Source: Patescibacteria group bacterium (GTDB taxonomy: Bacteria; Patescibacteriota; Doudnabacteria; UBA920). Taken from it: DNA of 64,000 nucleotides. Each line of letters opens with the position of its first letter. The first letter of the stretch is position 1. The DNA lies in NCBI GenBank assembly GCA_013387205.1, contig WARV01000005.1, forward strand, positions 27,924 through 91,923, written 5' to 3'. The position numbers and the translations under genes are program-made. This document shows positions 20,176 through 45,646 of this stretch, one piece after another. The notes under the pieces were generated by a model, which did no database searches, was not told the DNA's origin, and worked only from the letters and a program-made list of their open reading frames with translations.

Positions 20176-20191
20176 TTTTGTATCTAATTAA

Positions 20192-28877: not shown

Positions 28878-30011
28878 TCAAAGTTTCTTCAAAGCTTCAA
28901 TAAAACTGGGGTCATTTATGTACGCTTCGACGATGATTTTAATGTAATTAAAAGCAATTTCCACAAAATCAAACATATCACTATCTTTCCGTCCCGTTAC
29001 ACTCCTCATGTACCGATCCAAAGCGTTCCAGTCCCCGTGGGCAATCATGGACCTAATGTCGTAAAGATTTTTAAGCTTTTTAACTGCGGCTGCAAAATCA
29101 CCCTTGTTTTTTTGTTTTATTAGTACTCCAGCTTTCAGTTGAAACTGTTTGCTAATAGAGTCTTCGACATTAAACCTTGAGTAATCCGGATTATGGGTCA
29201 GTAAAAATTCTATGATGCTAACAAGCATGAGTAATTGCATTCTAGAATTGATCGTATTTTCATTGACATTGCGGATCATCTCGCCGACAAACATCAATTT
29301 CCCTTTTTGCTCCGACGATAGCAAATCAATTCTTTCACCCCAACGCACCATGTCATCTATCCGCCCCATCACTGTTTGGTAGTCAAACTCCTTGAATTTT
29401 TTATCAGGAAAAGATAATTGATGCAGGTATATGAACAATTCTTGGGTGAGTGAACGTTTTTCAGTTTCCAGTTCAATGGTCTTAGTCAAACGCCCCTCAA
29501 AAACATCTAAAAATAGTAAGGATAGGATAGCTGCAAAATTTGAAGCGTTTTCTTCCCTAACAGCACCAACTTCATTGCCTTGTAAAATAAACAACCCCCG
29601 TTCCTTGCGCTTTCTCATTTGCCGTTGCTCTTCTCTGAGTTTTTCAAAAAAACCTTCATCATCAAAACGTACAATGAGCCAGCTATTAGCTAGGTAATTA
29701 AAAGCTTCTTTTGGATCGTAATGTTTTAGGAAAGTTTTATCAATGTATTCATTTTTTTGACTTTTTTGTTTAAGCCCAATAAGTATTTTCTTTAGGTATT
29801 TTTTATGCAAAATAGTTTTCCCCTCAGACATAAAAAAATAATTTTTTAGCCTTTTATCATCGTCCCGAAATTCAATGTGCTCTTCTAAAAGCTGCCGAAA
29901 GTAAGATTGTTCGTTAGGGGTGCGTGGGTTGTCTAGTTCAATTTTCCAATATTTTGATAAGGTAATTTTTTTGTTTAAAGGGAAGACTCCTTTTAGTGGA
30001 ATTATATTCAT
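28878..30011 (-). CDS. Hypothetical protein with C-terminal HEPN-like Rx4H motif (Abi-like)
   Basis: 377 aa. The C-terminus LKNLYDIRSMIAHGDW contains R-x4-H (RSMIAH), the minimal HEPN RNase motif seen in Abi_2/AbiD/AbiF-type proteins. The N-terminal 300 aa are unassigned. Confidence 0.45.
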   Translation of the reverse strand: MNIIPLKGVFPLNKKITLSKYWKIELDNPRTPNEQSYFRQLLEEHIEFRDDDKRLKNYFFMSEGKTILHKKYLKKILIGLKQKSQKNEYIDKTFLKHYDPKEAFNYLANSWLIVRFDDEGFFEKLREEQRQMRKRKERGLFILQGNEVGAVREENASNFAAILSLLFLDVFEGRLTKTIELETEKRSLTQELFIYLHQLSFPDKKFKEFDYQTVMGRIDDMVRWGERIDLLSSEQKGKLMFVGEMIRNVNENTINSRMQLLMLVSIIEFLLTHNPDYSRFNVEDSISKQFQLKAGVLIKQKNKGDFAAAVKKLKNLYDIRSMIAHGDWNALDRYMRSVTGRKDSDMFDFVEIAFNYIKIIVEAYINDPSFIEALKKL

Positions 30012-30022
30012 GTATTTAAAAT

Positions 30023-31039
30023 TTATTCGTTTGCTAACTTATTATTTTTCGTTCTTTGCGCCAAATTTTCCGGACCTTTCGGCCCAGTCTTATCAATACA
30101 GTCTACATTCATTATATTCTTGGCACCGGCTGGCAGTTGGAAGCTTAGATCGTGGATATTTTTTTGGACTTCTTTTTCGGTAAGGGTTTGCATATAGCCC
30201 AGAATCTTATAATCCTTCAGCGCTTCCATGGGGTTTGTATGGTAAATCCATGGCTCCGAATGGTACCAGTCCTCTCCATCCTTTTTAAACTTAATTAAAG
30301 GCCATTTAGTAAGCTTTTTGGGCGGCAGGACGTCTTTTTGATCATCTATCAGGAAAACCTGGCAATGCGCCCGTCCTGAAGCATTAGGGATTATCCTGGG
30401 TTTGAGCAGTTCTTCCTTAACCAGCCTTTTTAAGCCGTAGCGGTTAATAAAAAAGCTGTGTTCCAGATCCAGGGCCGAATACCAGGTTTCCTCGTCGCTG
30501 GCGACGGTTGCCGGGATGATATTATCATCAATCGCTTTCTGGCAGATAAGACATTTAACCCCGTGCTCGTCGTACCAGGTTTCCTGGTCAGATACTGACC
30601 TGCCGCAAATAGCGCAGGAATAGCCCTGGCCTTCCAAATGGAATCCTTTGGGAAATTCTTTCAGTTTTTCTTTGCGTTTCCATTCTGTGAGGCCGATATC
30701 ATACATCACTTCAGCATACTGCTTCAGCCAAAATTCGGACTCGTTCAATTCTGATTCGGTCACCTCCCGGCCCGTATGCTTTTCCAGGATGTCTTTCAGC
30801 TCGGCTTTCATCTTATCCCTGTTTTTCTGCGCCTTGATTTCCGAAGACTTAGTCCGGTGTATTATTGGAGGGATGTAATGGGGAGGTTCTTTTAAGATTG
30901 GCTCTTGGGGTGCCGCTTTGAGAATATCGTCATTTTTTAAATCCGTTTTTAAAGCAGGCTGAACACGCACGGCTGTTCCGCACTGGCCGCAAAATTTATC
31001 ACCCATTTCCAATTTGTTGCCGCAATTCGTGCAGAACAT
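30023..31039 (-). CDS. Hypothetical protein with N-terminal zinc ribbon and an internal Cys4 cluster
   Basis: 338 aa. CTNCGNKLEMGDKFCGQCG at the N-terminus and CAICGRSVSDQETWYDEHGVKCLICQ internally. Separated from the HEPN-like gene by only 11 nt. Confidence 0.5.
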   Translation of the reverse strand: MFCTNCGNKLEMGDKFCGQCGTAVRVQPALKTDLKNDDILKAAPQEPILKEPPHYIPPIIHRTKSSEIKAQKNRDKMKAELKDILEKHTGREVTESELNESEFWLKQYAEVMYDIGLTEWKRKEKLKEFPKGFHLEGQGYSCAICGRSVSDQETWYDEHGVKCLICQKAIDDNIIPATVASDEETWYSALDLEHSFFINRYGLKRLVKEELLKPRIIPNASGRAHCQVFLIDDQKDVLPPKKLTKWPLIKFKKDGEDWYHSEPWIYHTNPMEALKDYKILGYMQTLTEKEVQKNIHDLSFQLPAGAKNIMNVDCIDKTGPKGPENLAQRTKNNKLANE

Positions 31040-31043
31040 ATTT

Positions 31044-31316
31044 TTAATTTGGGATTATGTTACAGAACAACATATGTGTCCCGCCATACCTAATATCAAA
31101 CAAAGTATAGTAACTTATTTCTACGCTGTTAATACTCCGCTCGGTGATCTTTGCCGTACGATAAAGCGAATTAGGAAATTTAGATACTTCCTGCTGAGCC
31201 AGCTTTACGCAGGGGCCGGAACCTAAACCAGCATTTCGAATAAGGACTTTGGGTATTGCGAGGCCGATTATCAGAATCAGGATAAGAGTTGTAAGGATAA
31301 CAACCGATTTTTTCAT
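31044..31316 (-). CDS. Small hypothetical membrane/secreted protein
   Basis: 90 aa with an N-terminal hydrophobic helix (VVILTTLILILIIGLAI). The stop is 4 nt from the next gene, and the gene abuts the mltG stop. Confidence 0.4.
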   Translation of the reverse strand: MKKSVVILTTLILILIIGLAIPKVLIRNAGLGSGPCVKLAQQEVSKFPNSLYRTAKITERSINSVEISYYTLFDIRYGGTHMLFCNIIPN

Positions 31317-32368
31317 TACTGGTTTTTTAAGTACTGGTTGATATTGGCCTGGTGTTCCTCATAAGTCTTGGCACAATGAATCTGCTTGTTGGAATCATGC
31401 AGATAATACAGACACTCGGTTTCTGCTGGGTATAGCGCAGCTTTAATAGCATCAATTCCCGGGTTGTCTATCGGGTGGGGCGGCAGGCCTTTGTAGAGAT
31501 ATGTATTGTAGGGCGAATCGATCTTTTCATCGGCAGGGGTAATCGGCGTCCACCAGGTGCCGTCGATTTTATAGTTTGTGCTCTGGTAAAGCCCGGGCTC
31601 CTTGCCGTAGTGGGCCAGGCTGTCGCGAGCGTACTGCACCGTAGCGTCTATCTCCAACTTCATGCCCTTAAGCAGGCGGTTCCAGATTACACCTGATATT
31701 ACTGGAGCATCGTCTTTGCCTGCCGCTTCCCGCTGGACTATGGAAGCGACTTTCAGCAACGTGTCCCATTTGATGTTCTGGTTTAAGGCTTCCTTGGAGT
31801 AAGGTGCAAATTCTTCATTAAATTTAACCCTTAGGCGCTGGGCGGTTTGCAGCGGCGTTTCGCTTACCGGAATCAAATAGGTATCGGGAAAATACACCCC
31901 TTCCAGATAGTCAAAATTTAAGGCTGTATAATTGGTTATGAATTTATCCTGGTCTTCGTCGCTCCAGCCTAAGTTTTTGGCCATGATGGAAGCGATTTGT
32001 TCTTTACGCAAACCTTCGGGAATAGTAACCCATTTCATATCAGGCTCACGGGTTAAATGGTTTTCCACCAAGTCCCAAGCAGAAGAACTTTTAGAAATGC
32101 TATAGCTGCCCGGCTTAATGGTTGCACCCCTGCCTTCAATTTTCATAGCCCAATTAAAACCTAACTTACTCTTGATGAAGCCTTTGGTATAGAGGCTGTT
32201 AACGATATCCTGCTGGGAAGCGTTTTGGGAAACCGTGAAAGCTTCGGGCTTAGCTCCTTTTTCGGGAGCACCAAATAATGCCAAATAGGCAAAAATTATA
32301 GTTGCGGCAATGACGATTATGCCGCCAAATGCCGTTCCTGCAATTATTGCAAGCTTTTTATTAAACAT
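31316..32368 (-). CDS. mltG: Endolytic murein transglycosylase MltG (YceG family)
   Basis: 350 aa with an N-terminal TM helix. YceG signatures GVYFPDTY, ASIVQREAA and VIWNRL. Confidence 0.9.
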   Translation of the reverse strand: MFNKKLAIIAGTAFGGIIVIAATIIFAYLALFGAPEKGAKPEAFTVSQNASQQDIVNSLYTKGFIKSKLGFNWAMKIEGRGATIKPGSYSISKSSSAWDLVENHLTREPDMKWVTIPEGLRKEQIASIMAKNLGWSDEDQDKFITNYTALNFDYLEGVYFPDTYLIPVSETPLQTAQRLRVKFNEEFAPYSKEALNQNIKWDTLLKVASIVQREAAGKDDAPVISGVIWNRLLKGMKLEIDATVQYARDSLAHYGKEPGLYQSTNYKIDGTWWTPITPADEKIDSPYNTYLYKGLPPHPIDNPGIDAIKAALYPAETECLYYLHDSNKQIHCAKTYEEHQANINQYLKNQ

Positions 32369-32407
32369 ATTTTACCCCTATAGTTAATTTGTAAATTTAG
32401 TTTATAT

Positions 32408-34885
32408 TTATACAAAACTTTCTGCTTCAAATATTAATATATCGTTTTCGTTATTGGTTTTCATCGTATCGATAAGATTCTGGCGGTACTGGACTACGTC
32501 TTGCTCTAAGTCAAAGCTTAAAAATTCCTGGTATTTTTCATTCAGCAATTTTGCTAATTCCATTGAAAAACCATTTTTCAATAAACAGATAATGTGCGGA
32601 TTATTTGTTCCGTATTTAACGTGGTCGTAAAAATCCGAATCAACCAAATCGAGGTCTTTCAAAATTTCCAGATACTTGAGGATATAGAAATCTACAAATT
32701 CCTGCTCTTCTTTTATTTTGGCTACGGCTAGGTTTATCCTCTGTACCTCGTTTTTTTCGCTGATGTTCACATATAAGCTTTGGTGCCCGTCTCCGCCGGT
32801 GCGGTCGCCCCACTTGGCGCCAACGTACACTAGGACATCTCCTCCCGCCTCCCTCCTTTTCCAGTAAGCGAGAAAACGGCTAATCATGAGCGGATACGGA
32901 GCCCCTTGGGACCGCCATGCTATAAACATGGAGTAAAAATTTCTCGCGATTTCATTGCCCTTTATACGGGCAATATTATCACTGCCACTTTTTAAGGTTA
33001 TGCCTTCAAAGAAAATCTTAACGATGGCATTGATTAAAGTTTCTGCACTGTTCATTTTTGGATTGCCCACTTCATTATAGTAAGCAAGATTGGCATTCAG
33101 TATTTGCTCGCTTTCTAAGATATTAAAGTCGTGTATATTGTTAGCAAAACACAGCCTACCCAATTCAGTTGCCGGAGCCGGTATGTCCGTAAGGCCGGAA
33201 GATCCGGGTTCAACATTTTCCAAGTAGGAAAGGACCTGCTTTGTTTTTTCTGTGTTTTCAGACTTCTCTAATAAAGGATTTTCTACAGTGTCTTCATGCT
33301 TGACCCCGGAATTCACCTTTTTATGATAAAAGGAGAGGGGCGAAAAACCCTTCGGAGAATAGGCTCCCCTCATCAAATAAATTTCCGGCTCAAGCAGCTT
33401 AAGGCTGCCCGATTCCAAGTCAAAAACTTCCTTGAAGCGGCAGACCCGGCCTATAAGATTTTTAAACTGGGAAGCGCTGAGGTGGCTCCTGCCTTTTTTA
33501 GGATTTAGTATGAAAATTTTCTGCGCCGGAATATTAACCCCTTCCAATAAAGTCGAGGTTGTGATGATAAATTCAAATTCTGGATTTTTTGAGAATATTT
33601 CTTCGATGTATAATTTTATAACATCGGGAATTCCGCCATGGTGGTAGAGTATCCCGTGCTTTATGCACTCAATTAGATTATATTCGGGATGGATTAGTTC
33701 GCTGATGGATTCGATAACCTTGTTTATTACCGGTGTTAAGGCTATGGGATTTTTTTGCCGTGCAAAGCTTAACGAAAAATCTTCAACGGTAACAGGCCGG
33801 TTAAGATAAATGATATTTTTATTAGCTTTGTGAGCCATGATGAACGCCACATCCGTGCGGTAATGTTTATTTGGTATGGGAAACGCCTGATCTAAAAATT
33901 GGTCATAAAAGTGCATGTTTTGCGTTCTGGTATCGTAAGCGTAAAACCTTTCGACTTTCATATACTCCTCGATCTTTTGGCCCCTCACCGCAATCTGGTG
34001 GTTTTTGATGCTCAGACTGCCAGTGTCTATCAGAAAGGGCGTAAAAAAATTTACCAGAGCCCTCTCGTTGCGCTTCTTTAATATCAGCAATACCTGAGCC
34101 AGCAGATGCGCTCGCTCGGAATCTTCCAAAATATTATGGGCTTCGTCAACCAGAGCCAAGTCCAAAGACAGCTGCTGGTGCTTCTGCAGCAAAATTAAAA
34201 GCCGCTCCTGGGTTAATACTGCCAAAAACGACTGGTCGGTTTCCCTGAACATATCGGGGTGGGTAATAATCTTTTTGAAATTTTGCCTTATCATCCCGTC
34301 TTTCAATAAGTTATGTTTGGTCTGCGCCAACAAGGCTTTGCTGGGTACGACGATACATATTTTTTTGTTTGGATAATTCCGAACCTTTCGCACGATCATC
34401 TCTGACTTTCCATAAGAAGTCGGGGCGACCACGGCGATATTGTCCTCAGTCAGGGAAAATTTGTTTAAAGCCAACTGACCTAACGACCTGTATAGGTTGG
34501 CGCCGTCCCCCTCGATTTTAAAAGATTCCTGGTATGCAGAAATGTAGAGATTGGAAAACGAATCCCTGCTATTTTCTCCGTTGGCATACTTGTTCTCAAT
34601 AAATTTTACTATGGGAATGTAGTCCCTGCTCAGCGCGACGTCTCTAAGGGGTTCGTAATCGCTAAATTGGTTTGCATACTTAAGTATGATCCTATAACCA
34701 AGCCGCTCGATATCAGGATCATCAGAGTTAAGGAAATAAACCGCAACTTTTAAAATAAATATTTTATTTTCTTCGGAAATATTTGCGCCGCCCAAGACTA
34801 ATTTTTTATAGACATTTAGAAACAGTGAGCCGTCAAGGTTCTTTTTGTTCCGGATCTTTTTTAGCGTCAGTTCGTAAATGTCCAT
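32408..34885 (-). CDS. hamB: SF2 (Ski2/Hel308-like) helicase, Hachiman HamB-like
   Basis: 825 aa. Motif I VVAPTSYGKS, motif II LVDEAHN, motif V ITTSTLLEGVNIP, motif VI QFKNLIGRVCR. Start overlaps the stop of the upstream DUF1837-like gene (shared nt 34885). Confidence 0.6.
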   Translation of the reverse strand: MDIYELTLKKIRNKKNLDGSLFLNVYKKLVLGGANISEENKIFILKVAVYFLNSDDPDIERLGYRIILKYANQFSDYEPLRDVALSRDYIPIVKFIENKYANGENSRDSFSNLYISAYQESFKIEGDGANLYRSLGQLALNKFSLTEDNIAVVAPTSYGKSEMIVRKVRNYPNKKICIVVPSKALLAQTKHNLLKDGMIRQNFKKIITHPDMFRETDQSFLAVLTQERLLILLQKHQQLSLDLALVDEAHNILEDSERAHLLAQVLLILKKRNERALVNFFTPFLIDTGSLSIKNHQIAVRGQKIEEYMKVERFYAYDTRTQNMHFYDQFLDQAFPIPNKHYRTDVAFIMAHKANKNIIYLNRPVTVEDFSLSFARQKNPIALTPVINKVIESISELIHPEYNLIECIKHGILYHHGGIPDVIKLYIEEIFSKNPEFEFIITTSTLLEGVNIPAQKIFILNPKKGRSHLSASQFKNLIGRVCRFKEVFDLESGSLKLLEPEIYLMRGAYSPKGFSPLSFYHKKVNSGVKHEDTVENPLLEKSENTEKTKQVLSYLENVEPGSSGLTDIPAPATELGRLCFANNIHDFNILESEQILNANLAYYNEVGNPKMNSAETLINAIVKIFFEGITLKSGSDNIARIKGNEIARNFYSMFIAWRSQGAPYPLMISRFLAYWKRREAGGDVLVYVGAKWGDRTGGDGHQSLYVNISEKNEVQRINLAVAKIKEEQEFVDFYILKYLEILKDLDLVDSDFYDHVKYGTNNPHIICLLKNGFSMELAKLLNEKYQEFLSFDLEQDVVQYRQNLIDTMKTNNENDILIFEAESFV

Positions 34886-35700
34886 TATTGTGGTACAGGC
34901 TGTTGAATTGCCCGCAGCTCTTCATTTAAAAACTGTTCAATTTTGGAATAGGTCGACTTTTGAATGCAAAACAAAATAAGGCCTGCGAAAGCACCTTCTC
35001 CTTTTATAGCAGTCAAGCGGTCTCGGACCGCCTCGTGGGAAATTTTATTCGTGATGTCATGGAATAAAACAGAAACTAAGATCGCGTTTTTCTTGGTTCC
35101 TGGAGTTTGTTGGATTTCAGTAATGTCCCCATCCAACAATTCCTTTACCTTTTTCCTGTCGCCCTGGGCCAAGCTTAGGCTGACGTCCATAATAACGCTT
35201 TGCCACAAGTTCGGCCGTCTCCCTTGAAGAAATTCCTGCATCGCAGTTTTTGACTCGTCCAGCAACTTTTTGTTTTTTGCATCCGGCCCCTCGTCGTTGC
35301 CGGTCTCGCCTGATTTAACTTCGCCATACCAAATAGCGTTGCCACTGACCTCAACATATGTCAGGTCAAATCCCTTTCTTATGCTCTGTTCTTCCTTATT
35401 AAAAAAGATTGTAATTTTTTTCAGGTTCGGCAAAAATTTATCAATAACGAGGTGGGCAATGAATTCTCCCATCATGCCTTTTTTTGTCTGCGATGACTTG
35501 CTGGAGTATCGCTTGATAAATTCAGCCAAAGTGTTTTTATACGAATGGATTCCCAGCGTAAATTCTTTTACTTCATTTTTGCCATGACAAATAGCGCTTA
35601 ATTCGCTTCTGATTAAGCCTTTAATTTCCTCGCTCAATTCGTTTATGTGGCAAACTACAAACCCGTCTTCTTGCGTAACGTTTATGCCCTTCATACGCAT
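34885..35700 (-). CDS. hamA: HamA-like (DUF1837-type) predicted PD-(D/E)xK nuclease
   Basis: 271 aa, the typical HamA size. Candidate catalytic core GFDLTYVEV ... YGEVKSG (D ... E-V-K). Directly coupled to the helicase gene. Confidence 0.55.
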   Translation of the reverse strand: MRMKGINVTQEDGFVVCHINELSEEIKGLIRSELSAICHGKNEVKEFTLGIHSYKNTLAEFIKRYSSKSSQTKKGMMGEFIAHLVIDKFLPNLKKITIFFNKEEQSIRKGFDLTYVEVSGNAIWYGEVKSGETGNDEGPDAKNKKLLDESKTAMQEFLQGRRPNLWQSVIMDVSLSLAQGDRKKVKELLDGDITEIQQTPGTKKNAILVSVLFHDITNKISHEAVRDRLTAIKGEGAFAGLILFCIQKSTYSKIEQFLNEELRAIQQPVPQ

Positions 35701-35822
35701 TAATCTTAATTAACCCTTAAATTAAGCTAATTTTACCATTTTTTGGCTCATTCATAAAGATGCTTCCAATCGCTCAATATTAAAAGCCGCAAGCGCAATC
35801 GCCAACGGCTTTTAATAGTTTA

Positions 35823-36254
35823 CTAACTTGCTTTTTGTCTAATGTTTACGCTGCGTAAATATTTGTAAAAGACAGCCATCCCGTCTGAATCCCCCGAAGG
35901 AACTAGTGAACCATTGGCATCCAGAGTTACGGTCAGCTGACAGGTTTTACCTGGGCGGTTGCCGTAAATCATATAGAGGATACCAGGGATGATAGCAAGC
36001 CAGAGCAGTAGAAACGCCACCAGGCAGCTACCTTTCTGGGCAGGAATAACTTTCTGGTAGCTGAGCAGAGTTGCGGATTTATTGGCCAGTACCCAGCCCC
36101 TACCATAAGAGGCCATGAATTGTTCAAATGACTGAAGATGGGTTTGATTAGCAGGTGTCTGCTGGCCGGAACCTTCGGCCAAATCCCGGTTGCAGTACTT
36201 GCAAAATACAGCAGCGTCCTGGATTTCCTCAAAACAAAATGGACATTTCTTCAT
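35823..36254 (-). CDS. Zinc-ribbon membrane protein (paralog 1)
   Basis: 143 aa. N-terminal MKKCPFCFEEIQDAAVFCKYC zinc ribbon, then a TM segment (CLVAFLLLWLAIIPGILYMIY). Confidence 0.5.
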   Translation of the reverse strand: MKKCPFCFEEIQDAAVFCKYCNRDLAEGSGQQTPANQTHLQSFEQFMASYGRGWVLANKSATLLSYQKVIPAQKGSCLVAFLLLWLAIIPGILYMIYGNRPGKTCQLTVTLDANGSLVPSGDSDGMAVFYKYLRSVNIRQKAS

Positions 36255-36258
36255 AGGG

Positions 36259-37416
36259 TTATTGATTGTTCTTTAACGCCGCATAAGTTGCCAGCACATT
36301 CTGCATAGCCGTCTTTTCTGCCGCTGTGATGTCGCGGTCTTTGTAGTACTTATCACCCTCGTAGCGCATCTTGGTTTTCGTTCCGGCAAGGACAGCGTTG
36401 ATAATTTTCATTTCGTCATCACCAACCAGGGTGACCGAAGTTTCCCAGACCGTGCTGTTATTATCCCGGCTGACTGAGAGCGGAATGTAGTTATAGTTTA
36501 CTCCGTCTATGTTGAAGATATATTTGTTAACGAACAGCCAGTCGTCGCCGTGGTAAGTCACTTTCATCCAGAGAGTCGGTTGTCCGTTATCCGGTTTGTC
36601 GATCAGCAGCATTACAACGCTCTGCCAATAGCTGGGAGGAAAGCCCTTGTCATAATAAGTCGTGGTCTTTTTAATATCATCATAATCAGAACCCATTTTA
36701 GACAGGACGGCTTTGGTCTTTGCGTCAGCTTCTGCTTTGGCCTTTGCCTGGGCTTCCTGGTCGACCTTGGCTTTAGCGGCAGCTTCAGCATCAGCCTGCG
36801 TCTTGGCTGTTTTTTCTTCCTCGGTGAAGATGCGTTTTACGCTTAAAGTATTAGTAGTCTTTTTGCCGCCATTAGTAGCAGTAATATTAATTTGGTTTCT
36901 GCCTTCGTTCGGGACAGGAGTCTGGTAATCAAAGCTGCCATCTTTTTGAACAGTAACTCGTTTATTGTTTATGAGCAGCATTGACCCTGCTGGATTGACC
37001 TTGCCTTTGACGCTGACTGTTTTGGCCTGGACGGTATAGCCACTCGCAGGTTCAGTAATAGTAAGGGAAGGCGCACGGCCTGCATAAGCAGTGGAGATTT
37101 TTAAAACCGCAAATACCAGGACGATAGCTACAGTGGCAATCGTGTTGGTCTTTGCGGTAAACTTGGTTTTTTTCCAGAGGAACCAGATTCCGGCACCTGG
37201 GATAGTCAGGTACCACAGGAACGGAGTTAGGATAACTAATAGCACTATAGCGGAAATCTTTAAGATCTTTTTGATTCCCGCTGACTGGCTTGGCATGTGC
37301 GGCAGGGCTGCCGCAACTGCTGGTTGTGCAGAGGCCGGGACAAGGCTCTTTTTGCAGTGCCTGCAAACGGTAGCCTGATCCTGGATGTCCTCGGCGCAAT
37401 AGGGACATTTTTTCAT
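36259..37416 (-). CDS. Zinc-ribbon membrane protein with extracytoplasmic Ig-like and A/K-rich segments (paralog 2)
   Basis: Start set at MKKCPYCAEDIQDQATVCRHC (13 codons inside the track ORF). Two TM helices, a beta-rich domain, then an AKAKAEADAKTKA-type low-complexity stretch. GC-rich. Confidence 0.55.
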   Translation of the reverse strand: MKKCPYCAEDIQDQATVCRHCKKSLVPASAQPAVAAALPHMPSQSAGIKKILKISAIVLLVILTPFLWYLTIPGAGIWFLWKKTKFTAKTNTIATVAIVLVFAVLKISTAYAGRAPSLTITEPASGYTVQAKTVSVKGKVNPAGSMLLINNKRVTVQKDGSFDYQTPVPNEGRNQINITATNGGKKTTNTLSVKRIFTEEEKTAKTQADAEAAAKAKVDQEAQAKAKAEADAKTKAVLSKMGSDYDDIKKTTTYYDKGFPPSYWQSVVMLLIDKPDNGQPTLWMKVTYHGDDWLFVNKYIFNIDGVNYNYIPLSVSRDNNSTVWETSVTLVGDDEMKIINAVLAGTKTKMRYEGDKYYKDRDITAAEKTAMQNVLATYAALKNNQ

Positions 37417-37440
37417 TGTAGTTTCCTTGATCGGTTTTTC

Positions 37441-37570
37441 CTGGCCGGATAACATAAAGGCCCCCGCCAGGAGCTCGACCCTTTCGGGCCGAACGCATGG
37501 GTTTCCCCATACGACCGATCAAGGAACCCTGACGAGGGGTTCTATATCTTGATCGGATTTTTTGACCATA
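37441..37570. other. GC-rich structured element (candidate ncRNA or structured 5' leader)
   Basis: An ~130-nt island of ~60% GC in AT-rich DNA. Long-range stem ccttgatcgg ... ccgatcaagg encloses ggcccccgccaggagctcgaccctttcgggcc. An extra hairpin gaaccctgacgaggggttc and a third cttgatcgg copy follow. The overlapping track ORF 37052-37522 is probably spurious. Confidence 0.3.
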
Positions 37571-37958
37571 TCCCTTAGAAGTATAAGGGGGTTAGGTCGT
37601 TGAGTTGTTAAGATAATTATACGACATTTAAGCCGATTAATCCAGTCCATTTTAACTTAGTATTGGAAGGTTGCGAAGTACTAGTTATCTACTGCTGTGG
37701 ATATCTTTATATTGACTCGATAGTGGGCAGTGCTATCATTTTATATAGAACAACTACATATAAAAACACGCTCGCCCGACTCTGATCCGGGGTCACAAAT
37801 TGCGGATCAAATTAATTATTAACGAATTACTTATTTAACTGAATTGGGGCTTGACACTTAGCTGTGTCAGGCTTACACCAATTCAGATTTTTTGTAAGCC
37901 GACCTAGCTTTGTGTCGGCTGTTTTGATGTGTGGCTAAAAATCATTAATTAGAACCAT

Positions 37959-39257
37959 ATGTCAACACAAAAAGGAACGAAAACAACTTGCTTGCAATGG
38001 CACAACGAAAAGCGCAGGGTCAAAGACCTGCTGCCGTGGGATAAAAATCCCAGAACTCTTTCCGAAGAGCAGGAAGAACACCTAAAGGAATCTATCTCCA
38101 AATTTAATTTGGCAGAGATTCCCGTAATCAACCTGGACAATAAAATTGCCGCGGGACATCAACGTTTGAAAATTCTGCATCTGCTCGGCAGGAGCAATGA
38201 GATAATCGATGTAAGGGTGCCAAACCGCAAACTGACCCAAAAAGAGTTTGAGGAGTATAACCTCAGGAGCAATGCAAACGTGGGCTCATGGAATTATGAA
38301 ATGCTTTTGGAGCACTTTGAGATCGACACTCTCTTGGAGATCGGGTTTGACGAGCAGGCTTTGGCAGACGTGTGGGATGGCATGCTCGAAACGGAGGACG
38401 ATAATTTGGACTTGGAAAAAGAAATCAAAAAAGCCCAGAGCACCAAAATTAAGCCTGGGGATATGTTTTCCTTAGGCAGGCACACTTTACTCTGCGCCGA
38501 TAGCCTTGAACTTAAAAACATTAAGCGCCTGGTCTGCAACCAAAAAATGGACGTGTTGTATGTAGATTTACCCTATAATACAAAACTCTCGTACTCTGAA
38601 GGCGTTGGCAAGAAGCGCAACTATGGCGGCCATACCAATGACAACAAAACCGATGCCGAATATGAGCAGTTTGTTACGACTATGGTTAGCAATGGATTGG
38701 CAGTTTCCAAACCCGATGTCCATAGTTTCTTCTGGTGTGATGAAAGGTATATTGGGTTATTTCAGAAAGTCTTTGCCAACTGCGGCATTAATTCGCTCCG
38801 CGTATGTTACTGGCTCAAGAACGGCTTTAACGTGACACCGCATGTGGCCTTTAATAAAGTTTTGGAAGCTTGCGTCTACGGTACGGTTGGCAAGCCCTAC
38901 TTAAATCCAAACGCTACAAATTTGCATGAGTTGCTTAACAAAGAACTCGGCACTGGTAACCAGTTGGCTGATGACATTTTGGATCAGTTTAACATTTGGC
39001 TGGCCAAGCGTGATGCCGGGCAAGATTACGAGCACCCGACCCAGAAGCCAATTACATTAGCCGAGCGCCCATTAAGGCGTTGCAGCAAACCAGGCGACAA
39101 TGTGCTGGACTTAACGGCTGGTAGCGGCTCGACAATATTGTCGTGCGAGCAACTTAAACGCCGCTGCTTTGCCTGCGAGATCGAACCAGTGTTTTGCCAG
39201 GTAATCATTAACAGATTTGAAACTTATGCCAAACAAAAAGTTAAAAAACTCAACTAA
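37959..39257 (+). CDS. ParB-like nuclease domain fused to N6-adenine/N4-cytosine DNA methyltransferase
   Basis: 432 aa. N-terminal ParB/Srx-like region (WDKNPRTLSEEQEEHLKESISKFNLAEIPVI). C-terminal MTase motifs: DLPYN (motif IV variant), HPTQKP, DLTAGSGST (motif I). Confidence 0.75.
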   Translation: MSTQKGTKTTCLQWHNEKRRVKDLLPWDKNPRTLSEEQEEHLKESISKFNLAEIPVINLDNKIAAGHQRLKILHLLGRSNEIIDVRVPNRKLTQKEFEEYNLRSNANVGSWNYEMLLEHFEIDTLLEIGFDEQALADVWDGMLETEDDNLDLEKEIKKAQSTKIKPGDMFSLGRHTLLCADSLELKNIKRLVCNQKMDVLYVDLPYNTKLSYSEGVGKKRNYGGHTNDNKTDAEYEQFVTTMVSNGLAVSKPDVHSFFWCDERYIGLFQKVFANCGINSLRVCYWLKNGFNVTPHVAFNKVLEACVYGTVGKPYLNPNATNLHELLNKELGTGNQLADDILDQFNIWLAKRDAGQDYEHPTQKPITLAERPLRRCSKPGDNVLDLTAGSGSTILSCEQLKRRCFACEIEPVFCQVIINRFETYAKQKVKKLN

Positions 39258-40008
39258 AGAAATTGAAATCAAATACGGTGACCAGTTTGCACTTGGCGAG
39301 CATAAGTTACTGTGTGCGGATGCCGCTGACACCAAAACCATTTCCGCTTTCATCGGCAACGCTAAAATCAGCCAGATAAACTGTGATGTTCCATACGGAA
39401 TTGAGTATGCCCAATCGAAGGCTGGCTTTGGCAAAATTAAGGTGGACAAGGAAATTTTAAACGACGATTTTGTCTCAGACAGCCAGTATGCAGCCTTTAC
39501 CAAATCCTGGCTGGATGCCGTGGTACCACACCTGGCCAAAAAGAATTCCGTGTATATCTTTAACTGCGATAAAATGTTGTTTGCCCTTCGTGACGGTATG
39601 CAGCAAGCTGGAGTGAAATTTTCCCAGCTTCTCATCTGGATCAAGAGCCAGGCAGTCATTGGACGCAAAGATTATCTGCCAGCCCACGAACTTATTGCTT
39701 ATGGCTGGGCCGGAACTCACGAGTTCCACCGTTCCAAAGACAAAAGCGTACTGTATTATCCTAAGCCTTCCAAAAGTCCACTTCACCCGACTCAAAAACC
39801 AGTTGGCCTTATTCGTAAGTTAATTCTGAATAACACGAAAATTGGGGATACGGTTTACGACTGCTTTAGTGGTAGCGGAACTTGTTTAATTGCTTGCGAG
39901 CAAACCAGGCGTAAATGCTTGGCGGTTGAACTTGACCCACAGTATTGCCAGACTATTATTACCCGCTACGAAAAATTAACAGGTATTAAGGCTAAAAAGT
40001 TAACTTAA
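39217..40008 (+). CDS. DNA methyltransferase (N6-A/N4-C, beta-class), paralog of the preceding MTase domain
   Basis: 263 aa. DVPYG (DPPY variant), HPTQKP and DCFSGSGT motifs. Overlaps the previous gene by 41 nt. Confidence 0.75.
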   Translation: MKLMPNKKLKNSTKEIEIKYGDQFALGEHKLLCADAADTKTISAFIGNAKISQINCDVPYGIEYAQSKAGFGKIKVDKEILNDDFVSDSQYAAFTKSWLDAVVPHLAKKNSVYIFNCDKMLFALRDGMQQAGVKFSQLLIWIKSQAVIGRKDYLPAHELIAYGWAGTHEFHRSKDKSVLYYPKPSKSPLHPTQKPVGLIRKLILNNTKIGDTVYDCFSGSGTCLIACEQTRRKCLAVELDPQYCQTIITRYEKLTGIKAKKLT

Positions 40009-40012
40009 GTTT

Positions 40013-40447
40013 ATGATTACCGACAAACAAAAACAATTATTACTTGAGCAATTGAGAAAAACGCCGATCATCCAGTTGGCTACTGAAAAAACCGGCATCT
40101 CTCGCATGACTTACTATCGCTGGAGACGGGAAAGCCAAAAGTTTAAAAGGGCGGCTGACGAAGCCTTGGCCCAGGGAGAGCTCCTGATTAACGATTTATC
40201 TGAAGGGGTGCTCATATCTTTAATTAAGGAGAAAAATTTTCAGGCAGTTTCCCTGTGGCTAAAACAACACCATCCTAAGTATGCGGCAAGGTTAGAAATT
40301 TCCGGCCGCATCGAGCATGAAGACGGCAATCTTTCGGCTAAGCAAAAAGCCATTATTAAGCAGGCCCTGCGCCTGTCTATGATTAACAAACAAAACTACT
40401 ATGAACAAAGAAAAGGAGTTCCAAAAGATCCAGCACTGGATGCTTAG
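40013..40447 (+). CDS. Terminase small subunit-like HTH protein
   Basis: 144 aa. HTH (LATEKTGISRMTYYRWRRE) and an LWLKQHHPKYA-type segment typical of phage TerS. Immediately upstream of terL and overlapping it. Confidence 0.5.
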   Translation: MITDKQKQLLLEQLRKTPIIQLATEKTGISRMTYYRWRRESQKFKRAADEALAQGELLINDLSEGVLISLIKEKNFQAVSLWLKQHHPKYAARLEISGRIEHEDGNLSAKQKAIIKQALRLSMINKQNYYEQRKGVPKDPALDA

Positions 40448-41900
40448 TGACATTAAAGTCAGGAGGGAAATCGTTACCAAAGACCACAGTTGGTTTTTCA
40501 GCTATTACTTAACCGGCCACCACGACCTGGAAACCGCCCCTTTCCAGCACGAGATGCTGGCTATCACCGAAGACCCAAAAGTCGATTTGGCGGTGATAAC
40601 CGCCTTTAGGGACAGCGGCAAAAGTACTATTTGTACCCTGTCTGGCGTATTGTGGTCGGTCTTAGGATGCCAAAAGAAAAAGCTGGTTATCATTATCGGC
40701 AAGACTTTAGACAAAGCCCAGACCCATCTGGTCAACATCAAGCACGAGTTGGAAAATAATGAGATGCTCAGGAAAGACTTAGGGCCTTTCCAAGAAATCA
40801 GTGGTCAGTGGGGCCTTCAGGCTTTGATTATTCCAAAGTACAATGCCAAGATCATGGTAAGCTCAGTCGGCCAATCCGTGCGTGGTGAAAAATATTTGCA
40901 AAGCCGCCCTGACCTGATTATTTTGGACGACGTGGAAGATCTGGAATCCGTCAAAACCAAAGAGAGCCGTGACGGCCTCTGGAACTGGTTTGTCGGCGAA
41001 GTCCTGCCTGCCAGAAGCCATAACAATTCCAAAGTCATCGTGGTAGGCAACCACCTGCACGAAGATTCGCTGCTTAAAAAGCTTCAAAAGAAAATTGAAG
41101 CCGGGGAAATTGACGGGATCTACCGTGAATATCCGATTATGGATAAAGATAAAAATCCCTTGTGGCCAGCCAGGTATCCTGACATGGCGGCTATCGAAGC
41201 CAAAAGAAAAAGTACTATGGACGAGCGAGCCTGGTACCGCGAGTTTTTGCTAATTATTCTGCCTGACGACGACCAAATCGTTAAGTCTGAATGGCTGCAG
41301 GAGTACGAACCTGGACAGCTTCCTGATAAGGATTTTCGCTATGCGGCGATGGGTGTGGATCTGGCTATCTCCCAACGCAGTAAGGCAGATAGTACCGCAA
41401 TAATTCCGGTTTATGTTTACGGAAACCAAGAAAACCTCAAAGTTTACCTGCTGCCACACCCAATCAACAAGCAGATGACAGGGTTGGAAACTTTGCAAAC
41501 ACTTAAAAATCTGTCTGACACTTTAAGCACAAGAGGCCGTGCCAAAATTTTTATCGAGAACAACGGCATGCAGCAGGTATTTGTTGAACAATTACAGAAC
41601 GCAGGATATCCGGCAGTAGGTATGCCTTCTTACGGCTCTGACAAACCGGGTAGGTTTAAATCCATCAGCCACTTGATCCAGGGAGCTAAAGTTTTCTTTC
41701 CCAAAGGGTGTTATCAAGAACTGCGGCAGCAGATGCTGGGCTTTGGCGTGGAAGCCCATGATGACTTGGTTGACGCCCTGACTTTACTGCTCCAAGGTGT
41801 AATGAAGGAAGATAGGCCAGCATGCAGGACTGGATGTTTTCCAGTGCCGACATGGTCAACCGGTAGGACTGAGTTCGGAAAAAGCATTGCGGTGTATTAA
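40401..41900 (+). CDS. Phage terminase large subunit
   Basis: 499 aa. Walker A AFRDSGKST, Walker B LIILDDVEDL, and a C-terminal RNase H-like nuclease region with conserved acidic residues (GVDLAIS ... EAHDDLVDAL). Confidence 0.8.
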   Translation: MNKEKEFQKIQHWMLSDIKVRREIVTKDHSWFFSYYLTGHHDLETAPFQHEMLAITEDPKVDLAVITAFRDSGKSTICTLSGVLWSVLGCQKKKLVIIIGKTLDKAQTHLVNIKHELENNEMLRKDLGPFQEISGQWGLQALIIPKYNAKIMVSSVGQSVRGEKYLQSRPDLIILDDVEDLESVKTKESRDGLWNWFVGEVLPARSHNNSKVIVVGNHLHEDSLLKKLQKKIEAGEIDGIYREYPIMDKDKNPLWPARYPDMAAIEAKRKSTMDERAWYREFLLIILPDDDQIVKSEWLQEYEPGQLPDKDFRYAAMGVDLAISQRSKADSTAIIPVYVYGNQENLKVYLLPHPINKQMTGLETLQTLKNLSDTLSTRGRAKIFIENNGMQQVFVEQLQNAGYPAVGMPSYGSDKPGRFKSISHLIQGAKVFFPKGCYQELRQQMLGFGVEAHDDLVDALTLLLQGVMKEDRPACRTGCFPVPTWSTGRTEFGKSIAVY

Positions 41901-41908
41901 AATGGCCG

Positions 41909-42604
41909 CTAACAAACGAATTTTTTCTGTTTTTTGCTGTATGAACACTTAACCGCATCAGTTTTGCCGTCTGATAAGCATTGCCTTACCAACTCGATCA
42001 GCTGGTCAGATATGACTTTGCCTTTTTGGTATGCATAATGGTAACCGAAGTTGCCTTTGCTCGGATGCGGTACGCCAATGATTTTGCGATTAGGATAAAC
42101 GTAAGCCAGTAACTCAAAAGCGTGATTGCCCACAGCAATCAGCGGCGTATTTTCCGGTATTAGAGAAATTTCTTTACTGAGGTAATTGCTGATGCTGTAG
42201 CGTATGGTGTTGAGAGATAAGGCTTTAACGTTTTTATTGCTTTGGCATTTAACTAATTCTGTCCAGAGGATTGGGCCGGTTAAACCAGTCTTGTCAGCCA
42301 AGTCCCGTAGCGGACCATAAAAATTTATATAGTCTTTGCGATTGAGTTCCCAGTAGCGCACAGCAGCTGGGTAATTTCGGTTTGCCTTGTCTGTAAAATA
42401 TATGGTTTCCTCCGGCCTTGCACGGCCAGGGTTCATGCCGACAATGATAGCACTTTTGCCCTTGCGGCCGTCTATTTCGTAGTAAAGGCATCGGGCGATG
42501 ATGCCTTGTTCGGGTTGGTAGTCGATATCAGAAAAGCTTTGCCAGGTTTTGTCATCCATCATGCGCTGGCCAATTACGGCGATTTGTTCGGAGATTGATT
42601 GCAT
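41909..42604 (-). CDS. Uracil-DNA glycosylase superfamily protein (MUG/SMUG-like motifs)
   Basis: 231 aa. Motif A IIVGMNPGRA and motif B GVPHPSKGNFGY are spaced ~130 aa apart, as in the UDG fold. Confidence 0.55.
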   Translation of the reverse strand: MQSISEQIAVIGQRMMDDKTWQSFSDIDYQPEQGIIARCLYYEIDGRKGKSAIIVGMNPGRARPEETIYFTDKANRNYPAAVRYWELNRKDYINFYGPLRDLADKTGLTGPILWTELVKCQSNKNVKALSLNTIRYSISNYLSKEISLIPENTPLIAVGNHAFELLAYVYPNRKIIGVPHPSKGNFGYHYAYQKGKVISDQLIELVRQCLSDGKTDAVKCSYSKKQKKFVC

Positions 42605-42610
42605 AGCTTT

Positions 42611-43261
42611 TTAAGTTTTAATTTTCAGAGGCATGCCTGCCTTTGTGACTTCCCATCCTTTCAAGTACCGAAAAAGAATCCCCGTAATTTCCATAAAAGC
42701 CATAAGCGCTTCCAGATAACCAGAGTCTGGTATAGCTTCGTCCATGGAGCTGATTTTAATCACTACAGTATGTTCGGATTCGTTGGGTTTGCTCAAAGCA
42801 TTGGCAAAATGTTTGTCCGAAAGATGGATGTATCCTGAAGTATGTTCGTAGACATTTTTTAATTGCGGGTACTCCTGGGCAAGGCTTTCGATAAGGTAGC
42901 CGTCTTTTAGTTTTCGGCCATCTTTATCTTTCAGCGTATTAATTTTGGTTCCTTTAAAAACTTCCATGGCAAAATCATGAAGATCTTTTACCAGCCACGC
43001 TGCTCGGTAGCGCAGTAAATTATCCAGTTGCATGCGAATCAGCGGGGCTGCGGCTATAAAATTATGTTTTTCAATCAGATCGCAGAATCCCGACATTAGG
43101 CATAATGAGCGGTTCATGACTGCAAAAGAAAACAGATCCATAGGATACAGTTTTCCATCAGCTGCCCTCATTATTTTTTCTCCCACTTCTTTATGGTCAT
43201 TGACCGTAGAACGCAGACTTGCAATTGCTTGCTTGATTTTGTCAGAAAGCTCTATTTCCAT
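42611..43261 (-). CDS. Hypothetical protein
   Basis: 216 aa with no motif recognised. The gap to the UDG-like gene is 6 nt and to the HEPN-like gene 20 nt. Confidence 0.45.
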   Translation of the reverse strand: MEIELSDKIKQAIASLRSTVNDHKEVGEKIMRAADGKLYPMDLFSFAVMNRSLCLMSGFCDLIEKHNFIAAAPLIRMQLDNLLRYRAAWLVKDLHDFAMEVFKGTKINTLKDKDGRKLKDGYLIESLAQEYPQLKNVYEHTSGYIHLSDKHFANALSKPNESEHTVVIKISSMDEAIPDSGYLEALMAFMEITGILFRYLKGWEVTKAGMPLKIKT

Positions 43262-43281
43262 GTTTTTGTCCCAATGGCTAA

Positions 43282-44619: not shown

Positions 44620-44722
44620 ACTAGCGGCTTTTCCTTAGCTTTCCGGGGTCTGGACTTCCTCTGCAATTTGAGTCATTCCTTTGATTGTGAGTGATATTTT
44701 GTATATAATTAATAAAGAAGCT

Positions 44723-45643
44723 ATGTCAAAAATTACAAAACCTGTGTTAATAACAGAATATGGACACCTTTATAAGGGTGATTGTTTACAGATAATGAGA
44801 GGGATAAAATCTGAAAGCGTTGACCTGTTTTTTGCCGACCCTCCATTTAACCTGAATAAATCTTACGGGAATGGTGTCAGGGATGACTTGCAGGAAAGCG
44901 AATATCTGGAATGGTGCCACAAGTGGATTGATGAAGGCGTGCGCGTCCTTAAACCCGGAGGTTCATTTTTTCTCTATAATATTCCCAAATGGAATGTCCA
45001 GCTGGCAAGCTATATTTCCAAGTCTTTAAATTTCCGGAGCTGGATAGCAATAGAAATAACTTTTTCTCTTCCGATTAAAGGCAGGCTATATCCGTCTCAT
45101 TACTCCTTGCTCTATTTTGTAAAAGGTAAGAAGCCCAACACTTTTGAACCGCCAAGACTTCCAATGCAGGTTTGCCGTCACTGTGGTGGGGAAATAAAGG
45201 ATTACGGCGGATATAAAAATAAGATGAATCCCAAAGGGATCAACTTATCTGATATCTGGACTGATATACCGCCCGTTAGGCACAAGAAGTACAAAAATCG
45301 CGAAGCCAATGCTCTAAGCCTAAAACTGCTCGACAGGATCTTGGATATGTCCTCTAAAGAAGGTGATGTAATACTAGACCCTTTTGGTGGCAGCGGGACG
45401 ACTTATATAGCAGCCGAATTGAAAATGCGGAAATGGATTGGAATGGAGATATCTACCACTGATGAAATCACGAGACGATTTAAGAGCATGGCCAAGGATA
45501 AGGAATACTATGACTGCTTAAGAGAAAATGTAAATGTTTTATTTACAAAGAAAGCTTTGGAATTACGAAAAAAACACGGCCACCATAACGGTAAGTACGT
45601 GCTTAGCGAAACAAATATTACAAAACAAAAAGCGTTGTTCTAA
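44723..45643 (+). CDS. DNA methyltransferase (N4-C/N6-A, beta-class) of a candidate type II R-M pair
   Basis: Start set at MSKITKPVL. Motif IV FADPPFN, motif I DPFGGSGTT. A CxxC ... zinc-finger insertion (CRHCGG) is present. Confidence 0.75.
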   Translation: MSKITKPVLITEYGHLYKGDCLQIMRGIKSESVDLFFADPPFNLNKSYGNGVRDDLQESEYLEWCHKWIDEGVRVLKPGGSFFLYNIPKWNVQLASYISKSLNFRSWIAIEITFSLPIKGRLYPSHYSLLYFVKGKKPNTFEPPRLPMQVCRHCGGEIKDYGGYKNKMNPKGINLSDIWTDIPPVRHKKYKNREANALSLKLLDRILDMSSKEGDVILDPFGGSGTTYIAAELKMRKWIGMEISTTDEITRRFKSMAKDKEYYDCLRENVNVLFTKKALELRKKHGHHNGKYVLSETNITKQKALF

Positions 45644-45646
45644 AAA

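Follow-up and report, generated by a model that had tools for sequence, protein, structure and literature searches.

The closest described relatives of the locus analyzed here are Hachiman anti-phage systems. Those of type I-A, exemplified by HamAB from E. coli ECOR31 (PDB 8VX9), E. coli DEC14B and Bacillus cereus-type systems, are two-gene hamA-hamB operons in which a HamA consisting of a DUF1837 domain only, with an intact D-E(x)K site, is combined with a Ski2-like SF2 helicase, HamB, that carries an N-terminal helical domain. In ECOR31 HamB this N-terminal alpha-helical domain (NAH) binds HamA, and it is absent from other Ski2 helicases. In characterized Hachiman systems, E138/K140 and D431 mutants abolish defence (PMC12278908), E150/K152 are the essential equivalents (PMC11914072), and D127, E147 and K149 are essential (PMC13064477). 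Other arrangements include AbpAB from E. coli K-12 (type I-B, PDB 8ZUE), in which AbpA has a Cap4 nuclease at its N terminus and a DUF1837 domain that is catalytically dead (PMC11914072), and Hachiman-MBL (PDB 9WH1; 10.1101/2025.09.03.673762), in which HamA bears a trypsin-like N-terminal domain and is predicted to be inactive, the MBL protein being the effector. In Patescibacteria (CPR), which have small genomes, the defence repertoire is debated (PMC12259885).

Here, a 64-kb stretch of a Patescibacteria genome (the window) was analyzed. The genes at 34885-35700 and 32408-34885 very probably constitute a genuine, intact two-gene Hachiman system against phages, with HamA as the nuclease and HamB as the helicase, of type I and I-A-like in the scheme of PMC11914072; within this known defence family the pair is unremarkable. 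Its genes, family membership, intact motifs, conserved pairing and exchangeable cargo position in a defence hot spot are established by the results below. A preliminary description of this DNA had recognized a Hachiman-like pair, a PD-(D/E)xK protein and a Ski2-type helicase, upstream of mltG, and the family profiles, motifs and pairing bear it out; the open reading frames (271 and 825 aa, minus strand) are present as it gave them. It also counted seven genes between 28878 and 35700, where we count six tiling ORFs. The features are as follows.

32370-35889, no strand assigned: strain-specific cargo segment of ~3.5 kb, holding the 3' tail of a 143-aa gene, a hairpin, hamA, hamB and the mltG leader (sister-strain comparison).
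32408-34885, minus strand: hamB, SF2 Ski2/Hel308-like helicase, 825 aa (ORF, Pfam, PADLOC, PDB sequence matches, AF2 model, Foldseek).
HamB domains: all-helical N-terminal domain (residues about 1-120), RecA1, RecA2 and a helical C-terminal half.
HamB motifs: I/Walker A, APTSYGKS, 154-161; II, DEAH, 247-250; V, TSTLLEGVNIP, 443-453; VI, QFKNLIGRVCR, 473-483.
34883-34887, minus strand: TAATG overlap, one base being common to the hamA stop codon and the hamB ATG (direct reading, CAA-TAA-TGG).
34885-35700, minus strand: hamA, predicted stand-alone DUF1837 PD-(D/E)xK nuclease, 271 aa (ORF, Pfam, PADLOC, hhalign, AF2 model, BFVD fold match).
35778-35817, minus strand: terminator-like hairpin with UUUUAAUAUU behind it, located immediately past the stop codon of the 143-aa gene upstream.

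Neither gene is a chance ORF: at 50% identity there are 506 representatives of HamA, and more than 2500 homologues of HamB are found at E ≤ 1e-10. The DUF1837 assignment proposed for the 271-aa protein was confirmed by Pfam PF08878 (HamA/DUF1837), which matched residues 29-199 with 34.1 bits, above its curated cutoff of 25. Four PADLOC HamA1 models also match the catalytic core; the matches are weak, at about 4e-6, and each spans only some quarter of its model, so that an automated pipeline might miss this protein. A profile of the HamA clade matched a Bacillus cereus protein from a Hachiman locus, annotated by RefSeq as DUF1837 (hhalign probability 94%, E 1.4e-7), with GE79..H83, GFD112 and GE127-x-K129 in register with the canonical protein and its GFD and GESK motifs. 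The B. cereus protein in turn matches the DUF1837 domain of solved AbpA (8zue_A), linking that domain to canonical HamA by sequence, and when used as query it found hamA as its only match in the window. Proteins 61-63% identical to the 271-aa protein, in Paceibacterota and Patescibacteria MAGs, are named 'Hachiman antiphage defense system protein HamA' by NCBI. The gene may start at the ATG at 35694 rather than 35700, as the public gene model gives 269 aa and it is with the second Met that homologues line up.

At the same time, the protein is a peripheral member of its family. Of 59 clade members sampled, only 35 are detected by Pfam HamA at E ≤ 0.01. Neither the single sequence nor profiles built from 31 and 59 sequences retrieved a solved HamA chain from the PDB sequences, chance matches alone being returned, a divergence that sets the protein apart from type I-A HamA, and hhalign of the clade profile was not significant against either a Bacillus trypsin-HamA or a Sphingobium DUF1837 protein, though in the latter the three motifs lined up by eye. 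A D ... EVK core had been suggested for the protein, and GFD112 and GE127-V-K129 are indeed present; E79, D112, E127 and K129 are invariant across the 59 clade members and are the predicted catalytic residues, to which the essential residues of the three mutational studies cited above are equivalent. In the AF2 model (pLDDT 90), E79 is in helix 70-89, D112 immediately precedes strand 113-117, and E127 and K129 are in strand 123-131, which places them on the canonical alpha-beta-beta-beta elements. The only significant match of this model in BFVD was a 'HamA C-terminal domain-containing protein' (E 4e-4, TM 0.47). Foldseek against the PDB gave no significant match, the weak top ones being PD-(D/E)xK enzymes (MunI, Exo5 and a Cas4-family protein; TM ≤ 0.25).

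HamB was assigned by its profiles. Pfam detects DEAD, ResIII and Helicase_C domains, and in the PADLOC search HamB1 matched at 2.3e-71, with HamB models accounting for 21 of the 25 matches. Ranked by sequence, its PDB matches are 9wh1_B (1e-27), 8zue_B and 8vx9_B, all Hachiman helicases, and then Hel308. The scores for NCBIfam Hel308 (NF040935; 34.9 bits, cutoff 1200) and PRK01172 (38.6, cutoff 891) are far below threshold, so the helicase does not group with housekeeping Lhr/Hel308 enzymes, the outcome that would have counted against the preliminary description. Motifs I, II, V and VI are intact and invariant in 33 homologues; the first three were reported correctly in that description, whereas the last, given as QxxGRxxR, reads Qx5GRxxR. 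By fold, the AF2 model (pLDDT 88) is matched best by the E. coli Hachiman helicase 8zue_B (Foldseek E 7e-17, TM 0.55/0.67), and is barely closer to it than to Pol theta helicase and Hel308, with which it shares its overall fold and motif set. It differs from both in its putative HamB-type N-terminal helical domain (residues 1-120 are all-helical ahead of RecA1, and the PADLOC HamB1 models align from residue 38), in its obligatorily linked HamA nuclease gene and in its strain-variable, mobile distribution.

The order hamA then hamB, with the two genes overlapping, had been noted before; the TAATG junction confirms the overlap, which is consistent with translational coupling. The same order, with a hamB of ~825 aa, is kept in all six relatives examined (L001, L002/3, L019, L020/21, L022 and L023), in neighborhoods that differ among all six. 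Identities to the HamA/HamB pair of the window rise and fall together (66/72, 63/63, 62/61, 60/62, 56/58 and 36/44%). Synteny through mltG was no guide to the pair: none of the 15 related mltG loci (species-level genomes) contains hamAB, and the relatives there are at most 54% identical and have no common neighbors. The zinc-ribbon gene at 30023-31039 was considered as a third component, as in L019 a homologue 57% identical to it comes straight after hamB, and was rejected because the sister strain keeps it without hamAB and other relatives lack it.

In comparison with the solved systems, the window HamB is much shorter than that of ECOR31 (825 versus 1174 aa) and has DEAH in place of DEGH (PMC12278908) at motif II. 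It matches 8vx9_B by sequence over RecA2 only and poorly by structure (TMt 0.37, normalized to target), and therefore probably lacks some of the C-terminal domains of ECOR31 HamB. Hachiman-MBL provides the closest solved HamB by sequence (the match covers residues 153-472) and one of similar length (853 aa). The HamA of the window, in contrast, has no trypsin-like N-terminal domain, is accompanied by no MBL gene nearby and keeps its catalytic residues; AbpA likewise differs from it, as DUF1837 is here the sole domain and its residues are intact. With a DUF1837-only HamA, a complete D-ExK site and a HamB, and with no HamC, MBL or trypsin component, the pair is therefore, by its predicted content, a type I (I-A-like) system.

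The location of the pair was resolved by comparison with a sister strain (84-87% DNA identity), in which the flanks are conserved and 32370-35889 is replaced by other defence genes (PDC-S37/Hhe-like, RmuC-like and Mrr-like). Sister-strain contig L035 is collinear with 35890-41902 at 87%, and L025 and L026 with 30900-32369 at 84%. The segment ends at the mltG start codon, which accounts for the mixture of defence-like genes with housekeeping mltG remarked on previously; as the flanks are kept while 3.5 kb is swapped, the adjacency of hamAB to mltG is incidental, the slot merely ending just before that gene. No convincing direct repeats flank the segment, a 16-nt family (D8) looking like chance. 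The surrounding island contains a HEPN protein, a BamHI-like R-M pair, a SIR2 protein, terminase genes and a serine integrase, together with ordinary host-type genes.

Three other readings of the pair were weighed. It might be a housekeeping DNA-repair module, in which a Hel308/Lhr-type helicase is joined to an unrelated nuclease. The near-equal fold similarity of HamB to Pol theta helicase and Hel308, the weak NCBIfam Hel308 matches and the position directly upstream of mltG with no intervening terminator all point that way, but a Hel308 equivalog score so far below its cutoff is set against HamB profiles at 2e-71, hamAB is missing from 15 of 15 related mltG loci, the sister strain has other defence genes at the same site, and in relatives the pair is found in the company of recombinases, R-M, Gabija-like and other defence genes; we consider such a module extremely unlikely. 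Nearly as improbable is that the pair is an incomplete fragment of a larger variant, non-functional alone, whether of type II with HamC (DUF3223) or of Hachiman-MBL with trypsin-HamA and an MBL nuclease. The 62%-identical relative L001, in which a DUF3223 gene immediately precedes hamA, and the origin of 9wh1_B in a trypsin-HamAB-MBL system lend it some substance. However, tblastn of the whole window found no DUF3223, MBL or trypsin homologue (best E 1.1 with the L001 HamC), and Pfam scans of the genes neighboring hamAB found none of these domains; HamA has no N-terminal extension or effector domain, its D-ExK site is kept where variants recruiting other effectors have lost it (PMC11914072; 10.1101/2025.09.03.673762), and five of the six relatives, all except L001, have plain two-gene pairs.

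The remaining reading adds to, and does not replace, that of an intact Hachiman system: hamAB as cargo of a phage-derived integrative element (TerS/TerL, ParB-type methyltransferase, large serine integrase), mainly serving that element and engaged in conflicts among mobile elements no less than in host defence. It draws on five homologous genes (for a serine recombinase, a TerS-like protein, a ParB-type methyltransferase, HamA and HamB) common to the window, L019 and L020, on resolvases or integrases that adjoin hamAB in other relatives, and on matches of window genes to the PHROGs terminase small and large subunits and integrase. Against it, no portal, capsid or att sites were identified, the island holds host-type genes, and the methyltransferase-TerS-TerL block is still present at 87% identity in the sister strain, where only the hamAB segment has been replaced; what is exchanged is therefore the 3.5-kb cassette rather than the entire element. 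The same comparison weakens the idea that hamAB is the terminal cargo of a single mobile element extending from mltG to the integrase. We therefore regard service to the element as rather unlikely. It is possible, and we put it forward tentatively, that the cassette sits in a cargo hot spot bordering such an element, one that recurs with Hachiman in several genomes (L019, L020), at least one of which is labelled Paceibacterota. Elements of this family could be satellites or cryptic prophages of CPR bacteria that carry defence genes and have so far gone undescribed, with a slot in which strains exchange Hachiman for Hhe/PDC-S37-like and Mrr-like systems.

For the intact Hachiman system, we infer every step of its mechanism by homology to characterized systems (PMC12278908, PMC11914072; PMC13064477 for the residues), from which complex formation, trigger, nuclease activity and a protective phenotype would all be expected. 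HamA and HamB would form a heterodimer in which the N-terminal helical domain of HamB holds HamA, and the complex would be quiescent on intact dsDNA. A free 3' ssDNA end or damaged DNA, arising from phage replication, would enter the helicase channel of HamB, where ATP hydrolysis would ratchet the enzyme and so switch on the HamA nuclease through E79, D112, E127 and K129. HamA may then degrade phage and host DNA non-specifically, resulting in abortive infection.

The pair adds one more intact system to the Hachiman catalogue and leaves current understanding of Hachiman unchanged; its worth comes mostly from its context, as the slot presents a defence hot spot at base-pair resolution in a CPR genome. 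The HamA clade lies at the edge of current HMMs: Pfam HamA picks up only ~60% of the members sampled, and counts of Hachiman in metagenomes are therefore probably too low. In addition, a compact 271-aa HamA that is predicted to be catalytically active, together with an 825-aa HamB related to the trypsin-MBL HamB, could make this pair a handy minimal model in which to compare the control of different effectors by HamB.

Finally, the transcription signals around the pair were considered. The hamB stop lies 39 nt ahead of the mltG ATG, and there is no terminator between them. Scans with promoter and terminator consensus patterns gave counts equal to the shuffled expectation. By eye, an extended -10 (TGgTAAAAT) was picked at 35730-35738, as a guess. 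The hairpin at 35778-35817 folds as RNA at -23.3 kcal/mol (z = -4.4), and none of 200 shuffled sequences folds as well; as it is terminator-like and follows the 143-aa gene, hamAB would start its own transcript in the 122-nt spacer.

The two genes of the Hachiman-like pair were located on the minus strand exactly where the preliminary description had placed them:

34885-35700, minus strand: hamA, 271-aa ORF
32408-34885, minus strand: hamB, 825-aa ORF

The junction between them reads CAA-TAA-TGG, with one base common to the hamA stop codon and the hamB ATG. Translation of hamA may in fact begin at the second ATG (35694): the public gene model has 269 aa, and it is with that methionine that homologues align. 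The interval 28878-35700, previously described as holding seven genes, is instead tiled by six ORFs.

The 271-aa protein carries both elements of the nuclease core first read from its sequence, GFD112 and GE127-V-K129, and its membership of DUF1837, on which the original assignment hinged, was borne out by a Pfam HamA/DUF1837 match of 34.1 bits (curated cutoff 25) that aligns residues 29-199 with model positions 6-167 of 230. Four PADLOC HamA1 models match the catalytic core (~4e-6), and proteins 61-63% identical from Paceibacterota and Patescibacteria MAGs are named 'Hachiman antiphage defense system protein HamA' by NCBI. Clustered at 50% identity, the clade has 506 representatives, almost all of them 255-285 aa long, and in a sample of 59 of its sequences E79, D112, E127 and K129 are invariant; in three characterised systems defence requires the D, E and K equivalents (PMC12278908, PMC11914072, PMC13064477). 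In the AlphaFold model (pLDDT 90.3, pTM 0.89) E79 lies on helix 70-89, D112 enters strand 113-117, and E127 and K129 are on strand 123-131, a predicted arrangement that is classical PD-(D/E)xK. The only significant match to this fold in BFVD is an 'Anti-bacteriophage protein A/HamA C-terminal domain-containing protein' (E 4e-4, probability 1.0, TM 0.47). A Bacillus cereus plasmid with a textbook Hachiman locus adjoining gajA provided a further comparison: it encodes a 731-aa helicase and a 312-aa protein that is annotated as 'DUF1837 domain-containing protein' and matches the DUF1837 domain of the solved AbpA (8zue_A, E 0.0014). Alignment of the window HamA clade profile with this B. cereus HamA by hhalign (94% probability, E 1.4e-7) places the motifs in register (GEFIAH/GELILH, GFD/GFD and WYGEVK/WLGESK), and the sole match of the B. 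cereus protein in the whole 64-kb window is hamA (E 2e-4). This HamA clade lies at the margin of what present detection models recognise, which is one source of modest added interest.

The helicase motifs reported for the 825-aa protein are all present (APTSYGKS 154-161, DEAH 247-250, TSTLLEGVNIP 443-453 and QFKNLIGRVCR 473-483), and its identity as HamB, rather than a housekeeping Hel308, was upheld: PADLOC HamB1 matches it at up to 2.3e-71, HamB models account for 21 of its 25 matches, and against the NCBIfam Hel308 equivalog, whose cutoff is 1200 bits, it reaches 34.9. Among PDB structures, three Hachiman helicases match its sequence best: 9wh1_B (1e-27), AbpB (8zue_B, 1.6e-12) and ECOR31 HamB (8vx9_B, 5e-9), ahead of Hel308, Pol theta and Ski2/Mtr4. 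The window HamB is nearer to the trypsin-MBL branch than to ECOR31. Chain B of 9WH1 is labelled 'DNA polymerase theta (Helicase domain only)' in the PDB. The preprint from its depositors (10.1101/2025.09.03.673762) identifies it as the HamB of a trypsin-HamAB-MBL Hachiman system, and the label could mislead automated annotation. In the AlphaFold model of HamB (pLDDT 88), an all-helical N-terminal domain (~1-120) precedes two RecA domains, and the C-terminal half is helical. For this model Foldseek ranks 8zue_B, the Hachiman helicase of E. coli, first (7e-17, TM 0.55/0.67), with the Pol theta helicase, HamB 8vxa/8vx9 and Hel308 only a little behind. From the modelled fold alone, therefore, HamB and Hel308 cannot be told apart; what distinguishes HamB is its match to sequence profiles and its obligatory HamA partner.

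In six independent relatives with unrelated neighbourhoods, hamA is followed directly by a hamB of ~825 aa, with HamA/HamB identities to the window proteins of 66/72, 63/63, 62/61, 60/62, 56/58 and 36/44%; judged from sequence, the divergence of one protein keeps pace with that of the other. Plasmids of Subdoligranulum, Microbulbifer, Staphylococcus and Bacillus carry related pairs as well. The two-gene Hachiman interpretation is correct: hamAB is intact, and an ordinary representative of a defence family already known. Neither a DUF3223/HamC gene nor an MBL gene was found in the window, nor was a trypsin or Cap4 extension found on its HamA. As these extra components are absent and the catalytic site is intact, the system is classed by its predicted content as type I in the PADLOC scheme and I-A-like in that of PMC11914072. 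In one relative (L001, HamA 62% identical to that of the window) a DUF3223 (HamC) gene, L001:122-790, lies directly upstream of hamA, so this HamA/HamB clade includes both type I and type II architectures.

By homology to the Hachiman mechanism (PMC12278908, PMC11914072), HamA and HamB would pair as a heterodimer in which HamB holds the nuclease in check on intact DNA. A 3' ssDNA end, or damaged DNA, that enters HamB would elicit ATP hydrolysis and ratcheting, thereby activating HamA for indiscriminate breakdown of phage and host DNA and leading to abortive infection. Beyond gene content, motifs and context, everything about the window hamAB is what we infer by such analogy.

A strong hairpin with a U-run (35778-35817, −23.3 kcal/mol, z = −4.4) stands directly 3' of the 143-aa gene upstream of hamA, so that hamAB probably has its own transcript beginning in the 122-nt spacer. 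At the other end, only 39 nt separate the end of hamB from the ATG of mltG, a bona fide gene (Pfam YceG 5.9e-72; TIGR00247 162 bits, cutoff 103). This spacer includes the mltG ribosome-binding site, AGGGG, but showed no significant structure, so transcription may run on into mltG. Scans for consensus promoters and terminators gave no information.

The source genome is probably patescibacterial. The best MltG relatives, from species-level genomes at ≤54% identity, belong to Portnoybacteria, Roizmanbacteria, Staskawiczbacteria and unclassified Patescibacteria MAGs, and none of 15 related mltG loci carries hamAB. Two contigs of a sister strain (GCA_020026565.1) delimit the variable segment. L025 is collinear with window 30900-32369, from inside a zinc-ribbon gene through mltG, at 84% identity, and its similarity breaks off where the mltG coding sequence starts; L035 is likewise collinear, at 87% identity, over the stretch from TerL down to 35890, a point within the 3' end of the 143-aa gene, and diverges from there on. 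By alignment, therefore, the 3.5 kb between these limits (32370-35889), with the hairpin and both ham genes, are specific to the strain. In its place the sister strain (L035:192-5081 and L025:1-2972 region) carries:

1629-aa DUF4011/AAA_11/AAA_12/MTES_1575 protein (PADLOC PDC-S37 2e-277, Hhe 1e-145)
RmuC-like fragment
Mrr-like nuclease, Mrr_cat/zinc-ribbon (PDC-S02 2e-17; type IV REase models)
375-aa gene with no assigned family

The hamAB site is thus a hot spot for defence genes whose cargo can be exchanged, with mltG as no more than its conserved flank. Such a hot spot, resolved to the base pair in a probable CPR genome, is of modest added interest.

Zinc-ribbon genes lie on both sides of the slot:

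30023-31039, minus strand: 338-aa protein, N-terminal zinc ribbon
35823-37455, minus strand: two N-terminal zinc-ribbon proteins (143 aa and 398 aa), between the methyltransferases and hamA

The 338-aa protein was considered as a third Hachiman component; it is probably a conserved flank instead, because the sister strain retains its gene without hamAB. In the closest relative, L019, a 57%-identical homologue (L019:9934-10905) comes straight after hamB; in the window, the two genes are separated by mltG and a 90-aa ORF. The 398-aa protein also has an Ig-like Glucodextran_B domain and is conserved in the sister strain, where conservation of the 143-aa gene stops at the breakpoint, 35890.

Beyond these genes lies a phage-derived block, 37959-47731, which contains:

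37959-40008: ParB-type N6_N4 methyltransferase (432 aa) and second methyltransferase, ParB-type/N6_N4 (263 aa)
40013-40447: terminase small subunit, TerS-like protein
40401-41900: terminase large subunit TerL (phrog_38 1.3e-76)
within 37959-47731: UDG-family gene
within 37959-47731: two genes without assigned family
44629-46398: BamHI-like R-M pair, detailed below
46391-47731: large serine integrase

No portal or capsid genes were recognised in 37959-47731, which could be a cryptic prophage or satellite-like element. The recombinase, TerS-like protein, ParB-methyltransferase, HamA and HamB are homologous between the window and the relatives L019 and L020, in both of which the first three adjoin hamAB; on this gene content Hachiman is thus repeatedly associated with a phage-derived terminase-methyltransferase-integrase module, a recurring link that likewise adds modest interest.

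Further defence-like genes and neighbouring features are present in the window:

44629-46398: complete type II BamHI-like R-M pair, 60-nt direct repeat at both ends
44681-45643, plus strand: its N6_N4 methyltransferase (PADLOC MTase_II 7e-132)
45647-46291, minus strand: its BamHI-like endonuclease (Pfam BamHI 6.7e-52)
28878-30011, minus strand: 377-aa Apea-like HEPN protein (family naming in some sources and Rx4H motif)
47740-48759, minus strand: 339-aa SIR2_2-domain protein (PADLOC SIR2 1.4e-16), between the serine integrase and tRNA-Gln
49137-49211: tRNA-Gln
20841-22787, minus strand: Pif1/RecD-like helicase (PADLOC candidate system PDC-S68 2e-24; type IV RecD models)
19513-20175, minus strand: RadC/JAB protein, near the helicase

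The 60-nt repeats (44629-44688 and 46339-46398, 85% identity) suggest insertion of the R-M cassette at a site immediately upstream of the integrase gene. The 377-aa protein has zero matches in Pfam, PADLOC and NCBIfam; its family is widespread, and some sources name members 'Apea-like HEPN' or 'HEPN domain-containing protein'. In its Rx4H motif, RSMIAH, R320 and H325 are invariant among 16 homologues, and the protein is therefore a likely RNase-type effector that acts alone in defence or abortive infection. The sister-strain contig L027 resembles the window at the DNA level only up to a point before this gene and has a different gene in its place. The 339-aa protein is a possible single-gene SIR2 defence effector, and 19513-22787 may be another mobile-element or defence-related cluster.
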